Shown: positions 27,094 through 58,851 of the stretch, in pieces
Numbering within the stretch: the stretch's first letter is position 1
Layout of the letters: the number at the start of each line of letters is the position of its first letter
Origin: a virus
Virus record (IMG/VR): IMGVR_UViG_3300045988_138661
Strand: one strand, 5' to 3'
DNA length: 64,000 nt
Notes under the pieces: generated by a model
Seen by the model: only the letters and a program-made list of their open reading frames with translations
Databases searched by the model: none
What the model was told of the DNA's origin: nothing
Translations under genes and position numbers: made by a program

Positions 27094-27101
27094 TTATAAG
27101 A

Positions 27102-27125
27102 AAGAGAAGATTTACTTCTTCTCTT
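27102..27125 (+). terminator. terminator hairpin
   Basis: AAGAGAAGA ttta ...TCTTCTCTT then T-rich run. Confidence 0.6.
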
Positions 27126-27155
27126 TCTTTTTTATTTTATAGAAAGGAGGATAAT

Positions 27156-28457
27156 ATGACTAATATTGAAATAGCTTGGAATTATTTGTATAAACAAATA
27201 AAAAATCCTTATGGGACGGCCGGACTAATGGGAAACTTAAAAGCTGAATCAAATTTTAATCCAAAAAATCTTCAAAACAGTTTTGAAAAGACACTTGGAT
27301 TAAATGATGAATAGTATACAAAACAAGTCGATAATGGTAAATATACTAATTTTATTTATGACAAAGCTGGATATGGTTTAGCTCAATGGACCTATTGGAG
27401 TCTTAAAAAACAATTATATGATTTTACAAAAAAGAAAAATACTTCAATAGGAAATTTAAATACGCAACTTGAATTTTTAATTTATCAACTTTCTACATAT
27501 TATCCTACCGTTTGGAATACTTTAATAAATTGTAAAGATATATAGACTGCTTCAAATATAGTTTTAACATAGTTTGAACGACCAAAAGATTAGAGTTTAA
27601 AAATTCAATAGTAGAGATTATATTATGGAGTTGAAATATATGATCAATTTATAGGAAAAGGTGAAGATATGAAAATTGTAGATAATTTAACAACATCTAA
27701 TTATCAAAAAGGTAATAATAGAAAAATAAAATATATTGTAATACATTATTTCGGTTCTTTAGGAACAGCAAAAAATATTAGTAATTATTTCAAAAACCCT
27801 GCCGCTAAATCATCAGCTCATTATTGTGTTGATGAAAAAGATATTATTTATCGTAGTGTTAAAGATGAAGATATCGCTTGGCACTGTGGCACCAGAAAAG
27901 GATATAAACATCCTGAGTGTAGAAATGCTAATTCCATTGGAATTGAAGTAAGACCTTGTAAAATAAATAAATCTAATATTGTAGCCAGTGATACTGATTG
28001 GTATTTTGATCCAAAAGCATTAGAAAATACAATACAATTAGTAAAACAATTAATGTAGAAATATAATATACCTGCGGACCACGTTATTCGCCACTATGAT
28101 GTAACTGGTAAATTATGTCCTCGTCCGTTGTGCGGAACTGACATGAATAGTTATTATAGAACAAGTGGCGATTACCAATGGTAGTTATTTAAACAAAAAA
28201 TTGGTAATAATATAAATATTAATGAGGAGGATGAAGATATGACTTAGGATAAATTTAATGAGATGATGGAAGTTTATTTAAATCAACAAGCCGAAAAAAA
28301 TGCAAGTTCTTGGTCTGAAAAGGAAAGAACTTGGGCTGAAAATAAAGGATACATTAAAGGCGATAGTTTAAATCGTAAGATGTATAAAAAATTTATGACT
28401 CGTGAAGAAATGATTGTAGTTCTTTATAGAATTATGAAAGATAAAGGGTTGGTGTAA
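27156..28457 (+). CDS. two-domain endolysin: lysozyme-like domain (phage tail lysozyme type) plus PGRP-type N-acetylmuramoyl-L-alanine amidase (Amidase_2), read through about 9 in-frame TAG codons
   Basis: One frame from ATG 27156 to TAA 28457. N-terminal GLMGNLKAESNFNP and GLAQWTYW are lysozyme-like motifs. C-terminal YIVIHY...AHYCVD...WHCG...SIGIEV...VIRHYDVTGKLCPRP is a textbook Amidase_2. In-frame TAGs at 27312, 27540, 27567, 27591, 27609, 27612, 28059, 28182, 28245; a holin follows. Confidence 0.7.
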
Positions 28458-28458
28458 T

Positions 28459-28854
28459 ATGAAACAAAAAAGAGAATTTTCTAAAACTCTGTTAATTCAA
28501 GAGTCTGCCTTAATTTGGATTTCAACATTAGCATATATTGTTTTAGCATTTTATTGTATTTATAATGGATATATGGGTTCTTTACCCTGGCTTACCGCAA
28601 GCGCAAGTCTTCCTTGGGCGGCATATGGCGTGAGCCAAGTATATTATTATAAAAAATCAATGGCTGAAAATACTAAAGATGGCGTTAAATATGCTTCAGT
28701 TATGAAAGAGCTTGATGAAGCTTATAATAATTATAAAAAAGAATTAAATAATACACCAACAGTAGATAATACTGAAACCACTTCTATGAGTTATTATACC
28801 GAAGACGATTATAGCGATAATAGTGATCCTATAAATACTGATTATGGTATTTAA
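28459..28854 (+). CDS. holin-like membrane protein
   Basis: Two predicted TM helices, charged C-terminus, immediately downstream of the endolysin. Confidence 0.5.
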   Translation: MKQKREFSKTLLIQESALIWISTLAYIVLAFYCIYNGYMGSLPWLTASASLPWAAYGVSQVYYYKKSMAENTKDGVKYASVMKELDEAYNNYKKELNNTPTVDNTETTSMSYYTEDDYSDNSDPINTDYGI

Positions 28855-28861
28855 TATAAAA

Positions 28862-28897
28862 TTGGATAGTATATTTTATATACTATCCAATTTTTTT
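28862..28897 (+). terminator. rho-independent terminator
   Basis: TTGGATAGTATA tttt TATACTATCCAA followed by TTTTTTT. Confidence 0.8.
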
Positions 28898-28993: not shown

Positions 28994-29022
28994 TTGACTT
29001 TCCAAAATATTTTTGTTATAAT
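28994..29022 (+). promoter_or_regulatory. promoter (TTGACT, TGnTATAAT)
   Basis: TTGACT, 17 nt, TGTTATAAT. Confidence 0.6.
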
Positions 29023-34732: not shown

Positions 34733-34761
34733 TTGATTTTTTTAAAAAATTTTTCTATAAT
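34733..34761 (+). promoter_or_regulatory. conserved promoter copy
   Basis: TTGATT, 17 nt, TATAAT. Confidence 0.65.
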
Positions 34762-36522: not shown

Positions 36523-36537
36523 TTAATATAGATTATT

Positions 36538-36566
36538 AAGGGGTAGATATTTAATATCTGCCCCTT
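36538..36566 (+). terminator. rho-independent terminator
   Basis: AAGGGGTAGATATTTAATATCTGCCCCTT followed by a T-run. Confidence 0.8.
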
Positions 36567-36581
36567 CTTTTTTAAGTATTT

Positions 36582-37595
36582 ATGCTTACTTTAATAATTG
36601 CTATACTGGCGTTTATTATTGGTGGATTTTTAATATATTTTATTTTACGTCCACGACTAAATAATGTTCAAAAGCTTAATGAAGAAATAGTAAAACAAAA
36701 CAAAGAGCTTGAATCTAAAAATTTAGATTTAAATGATTAGTATACAATATTATCAACGGCAGTAAAAAGTATTACTTCCAGAAAAGAAGAAGTAGAAAAT
36801 AATTTAAATATTCTTTAGTCCAAAAGAGACGAAGTTGAAAATAGTTTAAATTCTTTATAGAATCAAGCAAAGCAGTCAGCGGATATTTTCTATCAGCAAT
36901 CAATGGAAAATGCTCGTGTTCGCCTTGAATACGATTTAAATAAACAAGAATTTAAATATACAAAAGCTAAAGAAGAATATGAAAATGAATATCAATCAAC
37001 TCTTGTTGATTGTTCTTTAGAATTATCTAATTTAATTGATTCTAAAAAAGAAGAATTAAATAAATTAGATGAAGAAATTCAATTACATAGTAGAGAAGTC
37101 GCGGCCGCAGTTGATGCCGCGAAACGCGCTGAAGAAATTAAAAACCAAGCTGATTTTTATAAATTATAGTTGCCTCAAATAGATATTGATGAAATCAGTC
37201 TTCTTCGTTCTATCGAGCCAAAACTTCGTGATAAAGATATTTTAAATAAAGTAATTTGGAAAAGCTATTATGAAAAACCAACTACAGATTTAATTGGTCG
37301 AGTAATTGGCTCTGGAATCCATACGGGGATTTATAAAATTACTAATTTAGAAAATCAAATGTGTTATGTGGGACAAGCGGTTGATCTTTCTGCGCGCTGG
37401 AAACAACATATTAAACGCGGAATCGGCGCAGAGCCCGCCACGCGCAACAAACTTTATCCTGCTATGTTGGCTATTGGAGTAGAAAATTTTAGTTTTGAAG
37501 TAATAGAAGAATGCTCTCGCGAGGAATTAGATGTGCGAGAAGATTATTGGCAAGATTATTTTAAAGCTAAGGAATTTGGATATAGTATAAAATAA
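36582..37595 (+). CDS. membrane-anchored coiled-coil protein with C-terminal GIY-YIG nuclease domain (homing-endonuclease-like), 4 in-frame TAG codons
   Basis: Single frame: N-terminal TM helix MLTLIIAILAFIIGGFLIYFIL, coiled coil, then IYKITNLENQMCYVGQAVDLSARWKQHIKRG (GIY-YIG). TAGs near 36738, 36816, 36858 and 37167. Confidence 0.5.
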
Positions 37596-37653
37596 TGTAT
37601 AGAATAATTGATAAACGTGGGACAGGAAAAACGAGAAGTAATGAGGATTGATT

Positions 37654-38229
37654 ATGAAAAATAATAAAATCGTCAGTAATGTAAGAGTCTATGACTTGCC
37701 AGAAAGTATGGTTGCTTCTGGATATCCAATGAGAACGGATACCGAGCAACATCCAATTAATGATAAAGATATGACAAGATGTTAGAATCTTGTATCTGCC
37801 ACAAAAAGTGGTAATATGGCTCATGCCCAATTTTTAACTGGTATTAGAGTTAATTTTGATTTAACTTTTTCCAATAAGGCTTGGGTTGAAGCAGAAAGAT
37901 ATAGATTTCTTGAATTTGTATCTTCGCAATCCACAATGCATTGTATTACTAAATTTGATTTAAATGAACAATATAATGAATATGTTGATCCAAGAATCAT
38001 TGAGATAATGCGTGAGAAAGTTGATATTTATAATAAACTTTTAAGTATCATTGATAGAATTAAGCATTGTGAAACTGAAAATAAAAATGAAAAAATTAAA
38101 ATGCTTGAACAACTAGAAGAAATTAGAAAAGAGAAATATCTTGAAATTCTATACTCTAATCCTGCTGGATTTTTGCTTACCGCAAGATTAACTACTAATT
38201 ATAGATGTTTAAGAAACATATACATTTAG
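37654..38229 (+). CDS. hypothetical protein, weakly ThyX-like, 1 in-frame TAG
   Basis: Frame continuous from ATG 37654 through the TAG at 37780 into the ORF at 37816. KAWVEAERYRFLEFVSSQS only loosely resembles the ThyX RHR/S-x-x-x-S motif. Confidence 0.3.
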
Positions 38230-38323
38230 AGAAAAAACCATCGTCTTCCCGAATGGAGAGAATTTTGTAAATGGATTGAAACTCTTCCTTATGCGGAAGA
38301 ACTATTGGTAAATTAATCATAAC

Positions 38324-38352
38324 TTGATTTTTCTAAATAAATATTATATAAT
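38324..38352 (+). promoter_or_regulatory. conserved promoter copy
   Basis: TTGATT, 17 nt, TATAAT. Confidence 0.65.
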
Positions 38353-40889: not shown

Positions 40890-40918
40890 AAACCGGAGCA
40901 GTAAAATTGTTCCGGTTT
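40890..40918 (+). terminator. terminator hairpin overlapping the next promoter
   Basis: AAACCGGA ... TCCGGTTT. Confidence 0.65.
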
Positions 40919-40945
40919 GACTTTTAATTAAAAATATTGTATAAT
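40917..40945 (+). promoter_or_regulatory. promoter (TTGACT, TGnTATAAT)
   Basis: TTGACT, 17 nt, TGTATAAT. Confidence 0.6.
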
Positions 40946-46609: not shown

Positions 46610-47449
46610 ATGAAAAGATATAAGATTTTAGCAGGAAGTATTATTTGTTTTGTATTAATTTTTATTTTACAAACATCAGCTCTTGCTTTAAATTATAGCG
46701 AAATCACTACTTTTTCGGAAGCTTACATCCCTTCTGAACCGTCAACTGTATATAATTTTTTACCAGAAGAAACTATTAATATGGAACCTATGGATAGAGA
46801 AATTAATGATACAGTTAATCGTAAAGAGCTTAAATCTCTAATTCAAGAGTATCAAGAGATTGTAAATAGTGCTCATGACTTAGCCGAAGCAACAAGAGCA
46901 TTAGGGTATGATGAAAATCATCCTATTATTGAATTTGCTAAAAAAGAATATGAAACTGCTAATGAATATTTGGAAATTTATCAGAATCGTTTAGATAAAA
47001 TTAATTCTCAATGGAATGATAAATTATCTACTTATCCAGTAGCAACAGAAATTTGGCTTTATATGAAAGACCAAGGATGGAATGACGCGGTTTGCGCAGG
47101 TATTTTGGGTAATATGATGGCAGAATGCGGCGGTCATACTTTATCTTTACAGCCAACTGCCTCTAACAAATATTATTATGGAATTTGTCAATGGAGTAAA
47201 GGGTATTCAAGTGTTTGGTATTCTGATTTAGACACACAATGCGAATTCTTAATAAATACTATTGAATACGAATTTAATACTTTTGGTTCTTCATATAAAA
47301 GAGGATTTAATTTTAATTCTTTTTTAAATTTAAATGATGAAAAAGAAGTTGCTAAAGCTTTTGCAAAATGTTACGAGCGTTGTGGATCAAGTTCTTTAAA
47401 TCAAAGACAAAAGAATGCGACCACTGCTTATAATTATTTTACTAATTAA
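46610..47449 (+). CDS. secreted lysozyme-like protein (phage tail lysozyme domain)
   Basis: Signal-peptide-like N-terminus; GILGNMMAECGG...GICQWS is a lysozyme-like motif. Confidence 0.5.
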   Translation: MKRYKILAGSIICFVLIFILQTSALALNYSEITTFSEAYIPSEPSTVYNFLPEETINMEPMDREINDTVNRKELKSLIQEYQEIVNSAHDLAEATRALGYDENHPIIEFAKKEYETANEYLEIYQNRLDKINSQWNDKLSTYPVATEIWLYMKDQGWNDAVCAGILGNMMAECGGHTLSLQPTASNKYYYGICQWSKGYSSVWYSDLDTQCEFLINTIEYEFNTFGSSYKRGFNFNSFLNLNDEKEVAKAFAKCYERCGSSSLNQRQKNATTAYNYFTN

Positions 47450-47455
47450 TTTTAC

Positions 47456-47487
47456 GGCTATATGAAGATTTATTTCTTCATATAGCC
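47456..47487 (+). terminator. terminator hairpin
   Basis: GGCTATATGAAGA tttattt CTTCATATAGCC. Confidence 0.7.
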
Positions 47488-47512
47488 ATTATTTTTATTT
47501 ATGGAGTAAATT

Positions 47513-47974
47513 ATGGAAAAATTTAATTATTATGATGATGACATTAATATGATATATTAGGCAACCCCACAAAAAAGTGGTGAAGCATTAAAAAATTTAT
47601 CCGAATCCTTAGCTTCATTTACAATAGCCAGCGAGGACATAGATAATTAGTTAAAACAGTTAGGGATTACTGGAAAAACTCTTTATGAAGTTCTAAGTCA
47701 AATTGCAGATAAGTGGGTTGATGTATCTTTAGCCGGGTGTACAGGGAAAGATGATCTAAGCGGACCGGGAACAAGCGAGGAAACCGACAAACCAAATGAA
47801 AAATGTGATTTAGAAATTTTTGATGAAAATGAGGATTCCACAATTTTTCCTAATTCTGCTATCACACATGATATAATCAAAAATAAAAATGGTACTATTA
47901 CAGAAACTGCATCTATTGGAGATCCAATTATAATTCAAGCAGATAACGCAGATAATGAGTTTATTATATTTTAA
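47513..47974 (+). CDS. hypothetical acidic protein with 2 in-frame TAG codons
   Basis: Single frame from ATG 47513 to TAA 47972-47974. Confidence 0.35.
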
Positions 47975-55610: not shown

Positions 55611-57833
55611 TTGTATATTATTAAACGTGATGGAAGTATAACTCAATTTAATAAAAAGAAAATTATTAACGCAATAAATAAAGCATTTATTGAAGTTGAT
55701 GGTAAACTATATGAAGATGATACTGCAAAAGATATAGCAGAAGACATTGAAAGACAAATAAATCATTTCCCTGATGGAAGCGTTGGAGTAGAAGATCTTC
55801 AAGATTGGATTGAAGATTATTTAATGCGTTCTGAGCGACGCGATGTTGCTCGTGCTTATATCAGATATAGATATAAGAAAGAAGTCGCTCGTAATAAAAA
55901 AGATGATTTTATTAAAGCAATTCGTGAAAAGCTCGATGGCAATAATGTAAAGAATCAAAATGCTAATGTTGACGAACATTCATTCGGCGGTCGCACTGGT
56001 GAAGCAAGTAGTGTTGTTACCAAACAACTTGCGCTTGATTATTTACTTTCACCTATGGCTCGTAAGAATCATATTGATAATATTATTTATACTCATGATC
56101 TTGATTCTTATTATGTTGGTTCTCACAATTGTTTAAGTGTTCCCTTTGATGATTTACTCGCCAATGGATTTAATACTCGTCAAGCTGATGTCCGTCCTGC
56201 GGGCTCAATTAATACAGCATTTCAATTAATCGCTGTTATTTTCCAAATTCAAAGCCTTTGTCAATTTGGTGGAGTTAGTGCCACTCATTTAGACTGGACT
56301 ATGGTTCCCTATGTAAGAAAATCTTTCTTTAAACATTTCAATGATGGTATTGAATTTTTATATGAAGGATTAGATATGAGTAAATATGATGGTTGTTATA
56401 GTAAAAAAACTCCTATTGAAGATGATTTTTATAAATCATTTCCGAAGGCATATAAATATGCTATGAAAATGACTATTCGTGAAACTCATCAAGCTGCGGA
56501 AGGCCTTTACCATAATCTTAATACTTTACAGTCTCGTAGCGGTAACCAATTACCATTTACGAGTATTAATTATGGCACTTGCACCTTACCAGAAGGTAGA
56601 ATGGTAACTAAAGCATTATTAGATGTTTCTATTGAAGGTCTTGGTAAATTGCATAAAACTTCAATTTTTCCTTGTGGAATTTTCCAATGCATGAAAGGAG
56701 TTAACCGTGAAGAAAGAGACCCAAATTACGATTTATTTAAACTCGCATTACGTTCAACCGCCACAAGATTGTACCCAAATTATGCTAATGTCGATTGGTC
56801 TGGAAACGCAGGATATGACATCAATGACCCCCGTACCTACTTTTCTACGATGGGATGTAGAACAGCCAATGGATATGATATTAATGGTTTCGGTCAATTG
56901 AAAGATGGCAGAGGAAATATTTGCCCTGTTACTATTATTCTTCCTACTCTAGCGATGATGGCAAAAGAAGAATGTTAGAAAGAAGGACAAGAAGAAGATA
57001 TTGTCTCTGTTTTCTTAGCTTTACTTGATAGAAAAATCAATGAAGCACGTATTCAATTAATGGAACGTTTTGAATGGATTTGTTCTCAAGATCCTGGATC
57101 TGCGAGATTTATGTATGAAAATAATGTTATGGCAGGTTATGTTCCAGAAGAAGGAATTCGTTCCGCTCTTAAACACGGAACTCTTGCTATTGGTTAGATT
57201 GGTCTTGCAGAAACTCTTCAAATTCTCATTGGAGAAGATCATACCACAGAATACGGTATGAAAATTGCTAAAAAGATTGAAAAACGTTTCAAAGATAGAT
57301 GCGCTGAATATAAAGAAAAATATAAATTAAATTTTGGTGTATACTATACTCCTGCAGAAAATCTTTGCTATACTGCTATGACAAAATTCAAAGAAAAATA
57401 TGGCATTATACCTAATGTTTCTGATAAAGAATTTTTCACTAATAGTATTCATGTTCCCGTATGGAAGAAAATTTCTCCCTTTGACAAAATTGATATTGAA
57501 AGTCAGTTGACAGGTTATTCTTCTGCTGGATGTATTACATATGTAGAATTAGATTCTACTGTAAAACATAATATTGATGCTCTTGAAACTATCGTCAATT
57601 ATGCGATGGATCACGATATTCCTTATTTCGCTGTAAATGTTCCTAATGACACTTGCCTTGAATGTGGTTATTGTGATGAATTTAATGATTCTTGCCCTGA
57701 GTGCGGAAGTCATAATATCCAACAATTGCGTCGTGTAACTGGTTATCTTACAGGTAATTATAAAACTGCTTTCAATTGGGGCAAACAAAAAGAAGTTGAA
57801 GCAAGAGTAAAACATACAGGGTAGATGGAATGA
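55611..57833 (+). CDS. nrdD: anaerobic ribonucleoside-triphosphate reductase NrdD (ATP-cone, catalytic core, zinc ribbon, glycyl-radical motif); TTG start; 3 in-frame TAG codons
   Basis: ATP-cone IIKRDGSITQFNKKKIINAI. C-terminal zinc ribbon CLECGYC...CPECGS and glycyl-radical RVTGYL follow the TAGs at 56976 and 57195 in the same frame. The terminal TAG at 57822 is followed by a TGA 3 codons later. Confidence 0.85.
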
Positions 57834-57871
57834 TACATTCAATTTATGATTTAGCAAACTATTTTAATTAG

Positions 57872-57895
57872 AAACAAGGACGAAAGTATCCTTGT
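57872..57895 (+). terminator. hairpin downstream of nrdD
   Basis: AACAAGGA cgaaagta TCCTTGTT. Confidence 0.4.
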
Positions 57896-58173
57896 TCTAA
57901 TTAGATAGTAATATGTGCTTATATAACTGATAATTCTCAAGAAGTTTATAATTATTTAGATAAAAATAATATTATACCAATCAGGATATCAAAAACTCGT
58001 ATAGAATGGCAAGAAAATAATGAGCGATGGATATGGTTACCTATAACTTAGAATACCAGGGGTTATAGATTTTATAAAATAAAAATATCTAAAAATTATA
58101 ATAACGAAGAAATATTAAAAACAATAATTATTCCTTATTGTAGTTTATATTGTTGCTCTTGGGAGGTTATGGA

Positions 58174-58851
58174 ATGAATTATTCTAAAAAACCTTTAAGG
58201 AAGCATTAGAAAATAAAAAATAAATTAGAAAAAGCTACAGAAGTATTAAATAAAAAAATTGATTCGGAATTAGAAGCAATTATAAAAATAATATTTTCTT
58301 GGATAGCTAATGATGAAAAAATTAATACAGAAGAACATCAAACTATTCTAATAAATTTATTTTATAAGGCTTTAGAAAATCTTTATTCAGAGATTAATAT
58401 AGAATTAGGAAAAATTTACACAAAAGTAGCTCCATTTAATTTGCAGAATATCGCAAATTTAACTTTTCAAGAAGATGGAAAAACATTAGATGAGCGGATT
58501 ATTAAATATTTAGATGACTTAGAAGAAAAAAGACTATCTGGTGATTTTCCAGATAATTTAAAAAGTTTTAGTGTTAATATGTATTCTCGTCTATTAAATA
58601 ATGAAAGTAAATATTTATTCACTCATTTAATGGAAATGAAAATAAAACCCGTAGCTTCAATACTCGTAATTGAATCAGGGACTTGTGGTGATCTATGCAG
58701 TGAATGGGATGGAGAGTATCCGGCAGGAGAAGATATTCCTCTTCCTCCTTACCATACTAATTGTTAGTGTTCTGCTTATTATATTGAAACTGATGATGAA
58801 GATGACGTTAATGATTTAGATTTAGAAGTGGAGGAAATAAAGGATATATGA
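58174..58851 (+). CDS. Mu-F/SPP1-gp7-like (head morphogenesis family) domain protein with 2 in-frame TAGs, one inside the conserved HxNC-x-C motif
   Basis: The C-terminal region has the shape of the Mu F signature (TCGDLC...DGE....PLPPYHTNC-TAG-C, family consensus ..HPNCRC). It lies between nrdD and nrdG. Confidence 0.45.

Follow-up and report, generated by a model that had tools for sequence, protein, structure and literature searches.

Preferential recoding of stop codons in lysis genes has been described for several groups of gut phages. Borges et al. (bioRxiv 10.1101/2021.08.26.457843; Nat Microbiol 2022) proposed that lysis is gated by recoding, which blocks its premature onset, and reported preferentially recoded lysis cassettes in crAss-like (TAG) and Agate (TGA) phages and a "code-change module" adjoining the lysis genes in Jade phages. 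Moreover, genetic code 15 was validated by metaproteomics in crAss-like phages of the human gut (Peters et al., Nat Commun 2022, PMC9523058). In the present study, a stretch of 64,000 nucleotides from the IMG/VR virus record IMGVR_UViG_3300045988_138661 (the window) was analysed, and the subject of the analysis was an endolysin gene with nine in-frame TAG codons (27156–28457, + strand) and the putative holin gene that follows it (28459–28854, + strand). In a preliminary description of the window, the two genes were covered by the single interval 27156–28854, and it was suggested that, if suppression efficiency rises during infection, endolysin yield would depend on the recoding machinery and could thereby contribute to lysis timing. 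This idea is the hypothesis of Borges et al., and the present case fits the published pattern and is no new mechanism. What is new here is the predicted arrangement of the lysis cassette, which lies between two terminators, lacks a host-type promoter, and has a holin start that abuts the endolysin stop.

The locus shares several properties with the phages of Borges et al., namely, a low-GC gut phage, an apparently standard-code host, TAG used as glutamine (Gln), a suppressor tRNA in the phage lineage, and probably an amidase-type lysin that ranks with the genes favouring the recoded codon most strongly. Unlike those phages, it belongs to a lineage of approximately 195 kb with a Gram-positive-type endolysin and a DNA polymerase III alpha subunit (Pol III alpha) whose nearest counterparts are in SPbeta-like Bacillus phages. 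The cassette also lies outside the structural or late block, as a terminator-flanked island among TAG-free PhoH, gyrase, and ligase genes, while no spanin was found, the replication genes also use TAG, and neither a gene for a release factor nor one for an aminoacyl-tRNA synthetase was detected in the window. In the case of the phages of Peters et al. (PMC9523058), TAG is glutamine as well, but those are crAss-like phages of Bacteroidota supported by peptides, whereas the present assignment was made from sequence.

Compared with the canonical holin–endolysin cassette of Gram-positive phages, the order is the same: an endolysin of two catalytic domains and no signal comes first, and a small membrane protein whose C-terminal tail is charged comes immediately after it. 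Endolysin and holin are paired in this way in a standard-code relative (contig L009) as well. The differences are that the holin candidate here has no curated family, the endolysin needs amber suppression, and the cassette is distant from the structural genes. An engineered counterpart is lambda Sam7, which carries a single amber codon in its holin and is used with strains that encode the suppressor in the host. In both systems, synthesis of a lysis protein is conditional on an amber suppressor tRNA, but the present locus has nine natural ambers, they are located in the endolysin, and the suppressor comes from the phage lineage.

The endolysin frame comprises 433 sense codons followed by TAA (28455–28457). 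An in-frame stop scan returned exactly nine triplets, every one TAG, at codons 53 (27312–27314), 130 (27543–27545), 139 (27570–27572), 146 (27591–27593), 152 and 153 (a doublet at 27609–27614, with the second codon starting at 27612), 301 (28056–28058), 343 (28182–28184), and 364 (28245–28247). The TAG share was 2.08% of the codons, so both the value of about 2% and the doublet in the preliminary description were reproduced. At the local base composition, the probability that 433 consecutive codons contain neither TAA nor TGA by chance is approximately 2e-12, and the remaining two frames across the same stretch contained 29 and 61 of these stops. The Phage_lysozyme2 domain (PF18013; 27162–27650, + strand, residues 3–165) scored 92.2 bits in Pfam against a cutoff of 28.2 (E = 4e-26) and holds six of the nine TAGs, while the Amidase_2 domain (PF01510; 27717–28127, + strand, residues 188–324) scored 90.6 bits against a cutoff of 26 (E = 1e-25) and holds one, at codon 301. 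Both alignments extend across the TAG positions, and both halves of the protein matched endolysin or lysis families in PHROGs, including PHROG 20388 (endolysin). The two-domain organization with nine in-frame TAGs, as originally described, was thus confirmed by the frame scan and Pfam. Because both domains align over the TAGs and TAA and TGA are absent from the frame, the gene is intact, and TAG is read as a sense codon.

No signal or signal-arrest-release sequence was found at the endolysin N-terminus, the maximum 19-residue hydropathy within the N-terminal 130 residues being 0.4. The protein is predicted to be cytoplasmic, to depend on the holin, and to degrade peptidoglycan. The C-terminus (residues ~345–433) had been considered SLH-like, and this assignment was dropped as no Pfam match was obtained even at E ≤ 10. 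Clustering of the TAGs toward the 5′ end of the gene was not significant given the distribution of Gln codons (Fisher P = 0.09–0.66 in four lineages), and the base following each TAG showed no preference (4 A, 4 T, and 1 G).

To identify homologs, the nine TAG positions were masked as X, and 5,608 endolysin homologs were found. The closest, with identities of 94%, 72%, and 67%, were from human-gut metagenome contigs; as their genes were untranslatable under NCBI table 11, these homologs are recoded too. A standard-code homolog (P0005) was found at 52% identity. When the codons of the window gene were aligned with those of the recoded relatives (67–94% identity), TAG and CAA were found to exchange at 11 columns. 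Codon 53, the first amber, was TAG in all 15 near-identical relatives and CAA in contig L007. Codon 130 was CAA in contig L008, codon 139 was CAA in L007 and one near-identical relative, codon 343 was CAA in L007 and one relative, and codon 153 was CAA in one relative. Codon 364 was polymorphic even among the fifteen relatives at 92–98% identity, with 8 CAA, 4 TAG, and 3 CAG. Among the more distant homologs, the column of codon 146 was nearly invariant (Gln in 110 of 113), and Gln was the commonest residue in the column of codon 53 (52 of 111); the remaining TAG columns were variable polar positions, as were several CAA columns. No exchange of TAG with Ser, Tyr, Leu, or Trp codons was observed, except for a single TCT at column 93, a position occupied by AAG in the window. 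Moreover, the 61 TAG-free genes of the window terminated with TAA (49) or TGA (12) and never with TAG. The assignment of TAG to glutamine, i.e., genetic code 15, is therefore well supported by sequence comparison.

The suppressor was located in relatives of the window. Fifteen IMG/VR contigs of up to 197 kb carried endolysins 93–95% identical to that of the window, and the genome size was accordingly estimated as approximately 195 kb. The region upstream of the first gene of the window is covered by L034, a piece of one of these contigs that is 94.6% identical to window positions 1–12730; the contig itself carries a 95%-identical endolysin. A tRNA with anticodon CUA was found at L034:1190–1279 (57.7 bits to the Rfam tRNA model), approximately 8.8 kb ahead of window position 1; its distance to the endolysin is approximately 35 kb. 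The tRNA is unusual in its length of 90 nt, its variable arm of 18 nt, the lack of pairing between U1 and U72, and G73. A 33-nt stretch of it was matched exactly in three contigs, and one of these, of 197 kb, contains the endolysin as well. The dependence of endolysin production on recoding machinery, which was the premise of the preliminary description, was thus upheld, as TAG is a sense Gln codon and the lineage encodes tRNA(CUA). Full-length endolysin is predicted to require this amber suppressor of the phage lineage. A release-factor GGQ motif was absent from every frame of the window.

A weak match to a hepatitis delta virus (HDV)-like ribozyme (RF02682, 26 bits, E = 0.03; gathering threshold 44) starts right after the tRNA(CUA), and L034:1190–1334 spans both. 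HDV-like "theta" ribozymes are known to associate with phage suppressor tRNAs (Kienbeck et al., Nat Commun 2024, PMC10879173). The present match is similar in abutting the 3′ end of the tRNA(CUA), but it differs in scoring below the gathering threshold and in being located in the relative L034, outside the window. Two further RNA elements were observed. At L034:~728–925, what looks like an intron-interrupted tRNA was recognized by eye; its acceptor halves match, its D arm resembles that of tRNA-Gln, and CCA is encoded, while ARAGORN made no call there. In the tRNA array of the window, a RAGATH-33 RNA (Rfam RF03102, 126.8 bits, above gathering; 3594–3722, + strand) lies right after tRNA-Leu (3489–3580).

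Two other explanations of the TAG codons themselves were considered. If the TAGs were real stops, the endolysin would be a decayed or fragmented pseudogene, and under the standard bacterial code (table 11) its frame is indeed broken nine times, with the product stopping after 52 residues at codon 53. However, the lack of any TAA or TGA over 433 codons, the domain alignments across the TAGs, and the more than 20 contigs whose orthologs are full-length and show TAG/CAA exchange make decay hardly conceivable, and TAG also occurs within other essential genes of the window, including inside the DnaB and DHH/RecJ domains. Decoding of TAG as another residue, such as Ser or Tyr, is suggested by the suppressor itself, which has a length of 90 nt, a long, class-II-like variable arm, and G73 and whose neighbour is a 90-nt tRNA-Tyr. 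We nevertheless regard this as very improbable, because CAA and CAG are the codons that repeatedly replace TAG, Ser or Tyr codons never appear apart from the lone TCT, and a near-invariant Gln column (146) carries TAG. The identity rules of tRNA-Gln are established, and the unpaired 1/72 position and G73 fit them, so the structure of the suppressor would be compatible with Gln identity.

To evaluate how exceptional the TAG load of the endolysin is, genes were called with TAG as a sense codon, starts were picked by ribosome-binding-site strength, and open reading frames (ORFs) overlapping tRNAs were removed. The resulting set comprised 84 genes, with 59 TAGs among 629 Gln codons; the preference tests cover roughly a third of the genome (the 64 kb window), and three independent lineages were compared. 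In the endolysin, 9 of 25 Gln codons were TAG, compared with 50 of 604 in the rest of the window (binomial P = 1.1e-4; approximately 0.009 when corrected for 84 genes). Among the 38 genes around it at 8443–36522, not one of 216 Gln codons was TAG (Fisher P = 3e-10). Consequently, the endolysin is a TAG island within a 28 kb TAG-free block, which implies that translation begins in a standard-code cell. An ORF at 21774–21977 had appeared to be a TAG-bearing exception within this block; it was in the wrong frame, and the true ORF (21764–21958) has no TAG. The endolysin had also been described as having the highest TAG density in the window. This holds by count and for genes of sizeable length, but two small ORFs equal or exceed it in density (57830–58177, 3/115, 2.6%; 61567–61995, 3/142, 2.1%).

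The cassette is enclosed by terminator-like hairpins on both sides. The upstream hairpin (27098–27139, + strand) consists of a 13 bp stem at 27098–27129 and a T tract (−19.7 kcal/mol, z = −2.6), and it sits between the stop codon of the PhoH-like gene and the Shine–Dalgarno sequence of the endolysin. L007 and L008 also have a hairpin at this location, but its sequence is entirely different, which indicates that the structure is conserved through compensatory change. The Shine–Dalgarno sequence, a perfect AAAGGAGG (27143–27150, + strand), lies 5 nt before the endolysin ATG and is conserved in L001, L007, L008, and L012. As the T tract ends at 27139, about four bases before the Shine–Dalgarno sequence begins at 27143, there is no room for a promoter between the terminator and the endolysin. 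Downstream, the cassette is closed by a hairpin with a 17 bp stem and a T tract (28858–28894, + strand), which is conserved in L007. It is followed by a sigma-70-like promoter, TTGACT-17-(TG)TATAAT (28994–29022, + strand), also conserved in L007, which serves the next TAG-free operon (DUF5662, GyrB, RNase H, and GyrA).

Approximately 20 near-identical sigma-70-like promoters of the form TTGAYT-17-TATAATAT(A/T)TATA were found across the window before tRNAs and TAG-free operons, for example, at 5431–5459, 10020–10048, 12641–12669, 16294–16322, 19683–19711, 20621–20649, 21701–21729, 28994–29022, 34733–34761, 38324–38352, and 40917–40945. This repeated promoter probably marks a class of genes transcribed early by the host RNA polymerase, and no copy of it was found in the lysis cassette. 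The neighbours of the cassette are not structural genes; upstream are SPFH/Band 7, kinase, phosphatase, NADAR, and PIN-PhoH genes, and downstream, besides the genes of the DUF5662-to-GyrA operon, is an ATP-dependent ligase. The layout of the cassette, with a hairpin, TAG genes, and a consensus promoter, recurs at ~36530–38316 and ~47455–47974, where the genes encode a GIY-YIG protein with 4 TAGs and two proteins of 220 and 153 aa with 2 TAGs each. When genes were divided by a crude promoter/terminator state model with loose motif rules, 17 of 69 Gln codons in those "behind a terminator" were TAG, compared with 35 of 517 in the others. This bias is suggestive, and it was driven largely by the endolysin. 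As an observation on the TAG genes elsewhere, two genes at 6310–8170 (+ strand), encoding an unassigned 283-aa protein and a GmrSD_N/DUF262-like protein, carry three TAGs each and immediately follow a 271-aa gene that lacks TAG and stands under a consensus early promoter; TAG genes are thus not limited to terminator-insulated slots.

The gene after the endolysin encodes 131 aa, with a strong hydrophobic helix at residues ~16–36 (hydropathy 2.0), a weak one at ~41–63, and an acidic tail (14 acidic and 6 basic residues among the C-terminal 66). It is homologous (29% identity, E = 2e-6) to a 117-aa product encoded after the endolysin homolog of the standard-code phage L009. Searches of Pfam, PHROGs, and NCBIfam gave no family match, also when the E-value limit was relaxed. 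The label "holin" of the preliminary description was accordingly retained as "putative holin", which is a fair label resting on position and topology. The same description had set this TAG-free gene against the endolysin. No TAG is indeed present in 28459–28854, but the contrast has no statistical weight because the gene has just three Gln codons, all CAA, for which the probability of zero TAG is 0.26–0.74; moreover, the L007 ortholog has a TAG at codon 14. The holin ATG lies one base past the endolysin stop in a TAA-T-ATG junction (28455–28461, + strand), which is also found in L001 and L007 and is replaced by an overlapping TAATG in L008. The ribosome-binding site of the holin is weak. Judged by this stop/start geometry, the two genes may be translationally coupled.

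Considering these results, we find it fairly probable that the TAG load acts as a translational lock laid over transcriptional insulation, which would prevent premature or host-forced expression of the lysis genes and would not itself be the lysis clock. At the start of infection, release factor 1 (RF1) would terminate at UAG, and transcripts leaking past the upstream terminator would yield a 52-residue fragment and no enzyme. Full-length endolysin would be produced once the phage suppressor tRNA competes well, with a yield scaling approximately as the ninth power of the per-codon suppression s; the computed s^9 yield is 0.2% at s = 0.5 and 39% at s = 0.9. Translation of the holin could be gated indirectly through coupling to the endolysin, given its abutting start and weaker ribosome-binding site. 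Such a "safety lock" fits the data better than a "clock". The earlier suggestion that suppression-linked endolysin yield may aid lysis timing is plausible, although it is weakened by the TAGs in replication genes.

Several observations weigh against a lock of this kind. In canonical holin–endolysin systems such as those of lambda and T4, it is the holin, and not the amount of endolysin, that sets the time of lysis. When the endolysin was compared with TAG-using genes alone (50 of 232 Gln codons, 22%), its excess was not significant (P = 0.07). TAGs are also carried by genes for a DnaB-like helicase (2), a RecJ-like nuclease (6), an anaerobic ribonucleotide reductase (3), a RuvC-like protein (3), and the GIY-YIG protein (4), and because replication genes carry 2–6 TAGs, suppression must be active already during replication, long before lysis. 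A second Phage_lysozyme2 protein (46610–47449, + strand) has 11 Gln codons, none of them TAG. In the L007 lineage, the endolysin has only 4 TAGs and the holin has one. In addition, no RNA structure sequestering the holin start or ribosome-binding site was detected (z = 0.14), and none of the eight tRNAs of the window carries a CUA anticodon according to ARAGORN and Rfam, so no suppressor tRNA was seen in the window itself.

The main rival to the translational lock is that the TAGs are a passive by-product. The endolysin would then be transcribed only late, when suppression is complete, TAG would be a neutral synonym of CAA/CAG arising from drift or C-to-T pressure, and the timing would be set entirely by transcription, through terminator read-through or an unrecognised late promoter, and by the holin, with the TAGs regulating nothing. 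We consider this explanation less probable than the lock. It agrees with the lack of significance among TAG-using genes, with the many non-lysis genes that carry TAGs, with a cassette that is already transcriptionally insulated, and with the turnover of TAG positions among lineages, whose counts range from 4 to 10 (7–10 in 17 near-identical relatives). However, TAG is not a mere replacement of CAG, because the neighbours that use only CAA have approximately 0% G-ending Gln codons (13 CAA and 0 CAG in the PhoH-like neighbour), while the endolysin has no CAG and 36% TAG. L008 also keeps a high load of 10 TAGs, with just three at positions common to the window gene, and the bias of lysis genes was found independently in two further phage clades (Borges et al.). 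Codon adaptation, in which a late suppressor that is abundant, perhaps exceeding host tRNA-Gln, makes TAG a well-translated Gln codon that serves high late expression and not early silencing, appears improbable. A large phage tRNA set (8 in the window and more upstream) would suit it, and codon-based tuning of late genes was discussed by Borges et al., but the most conserved Gln columns of the endolysin (40, 77, and 104) are always CAA, the large and presumably abundant Pol III alpha-like protein has no TAG among 50 Gln codons, and competition by RF1 makes UAG intrinsically costly. As an extension of the lock, the number of TAGs per gene might serve as a graded threshold (~s^n), such that genes with 2–3 TAGs, such as the helicase and the ribonucleotide reductase, are switched on at moderate suppressor levels, the nine-TAG endolysin is produced near full suppression, and the holin follows by coupling. 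Together with the terminator, this would form a two-input AND gate (read-through AND code switch) within the early-gene block; we consider this version doubtful.

The window most likely derives from a gut phage of approximately 195 kb with a host in the Bacillota (Clostridia). Its Pol III alpha is nearest to those of SPbeta-like Bacillus phages (39% identity), and the relatives of the endolysin occur in phages and prophages of Oscillospiraceae, Ruminococcaceae, and Lachnospiraceae. Megablast with the 20 kb around the endolysin found no match among 50,697 deposited phage genomes, and protein-level matches did not exceed 51% identity. Two contigs 98% identical to the window, L049 (JALFQD010000403.1) and L054 (CAMELE010000001.1), were found in GTDB metagenome-assembled genomes (MAGs) named "Clostridium sp." and "uncultured Mollicutes"; their placement reflects either mis-binning or a hint of the host.

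Other genes of the window were also recorded. The second Phage_lysozyme2 protein (46610–47449) has an N-terminal signal anchor (hydropathy 2.3) and is located among replication genes. A major-vault-protein (MVP)-like gene (Pfam MVP_shoulder and Vault_3) adjoins a DUF2828/DUF7788 gene (8443–9969 and 10087–12585, + strand). In both genes, Gln is encoded almost solely by CAG (27:0 and 9:0), while the window is otherwise rich in CAA, and both contain very long antisense ORFs, e.g., 10051–12267 (738 codons). These features suggest recent acquisition from another codon-usage background. The same CAG bias was observed in an SPFH/Band 7 (flotillin-like) protein (23531–24916, + strand; 20 CAG and 1 CAA). 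Moreover, paralogous Mtd_N-type tail-fibre-like genes are present at 88–1356 (+ strand) and in L034:2834–9738, with no TAG in the window copy and 0–3 in the upstream copies of the relative.

The locus also has practical implications. Standard gene callers fragment TAG-bearing genes, and near-identical phage contigs are binned in bacterial MAGs. Heterologous expression of the nine-amber endolysin is impossible unless the gene is recoded. As a compact unit of terminator, nine-amber endolysin, putatively coupled holin, and terminator, the cassette is a convenient object for reporter and synonymous-recoding work. If the TAG load does gate the endolysin, this cassette would be the third independent case, after the crAss-like and Agate phages, to support the idea that a code change in mid-infection protects the lysis decision, and it would come from a phage of Gram-positive gut bacteria.

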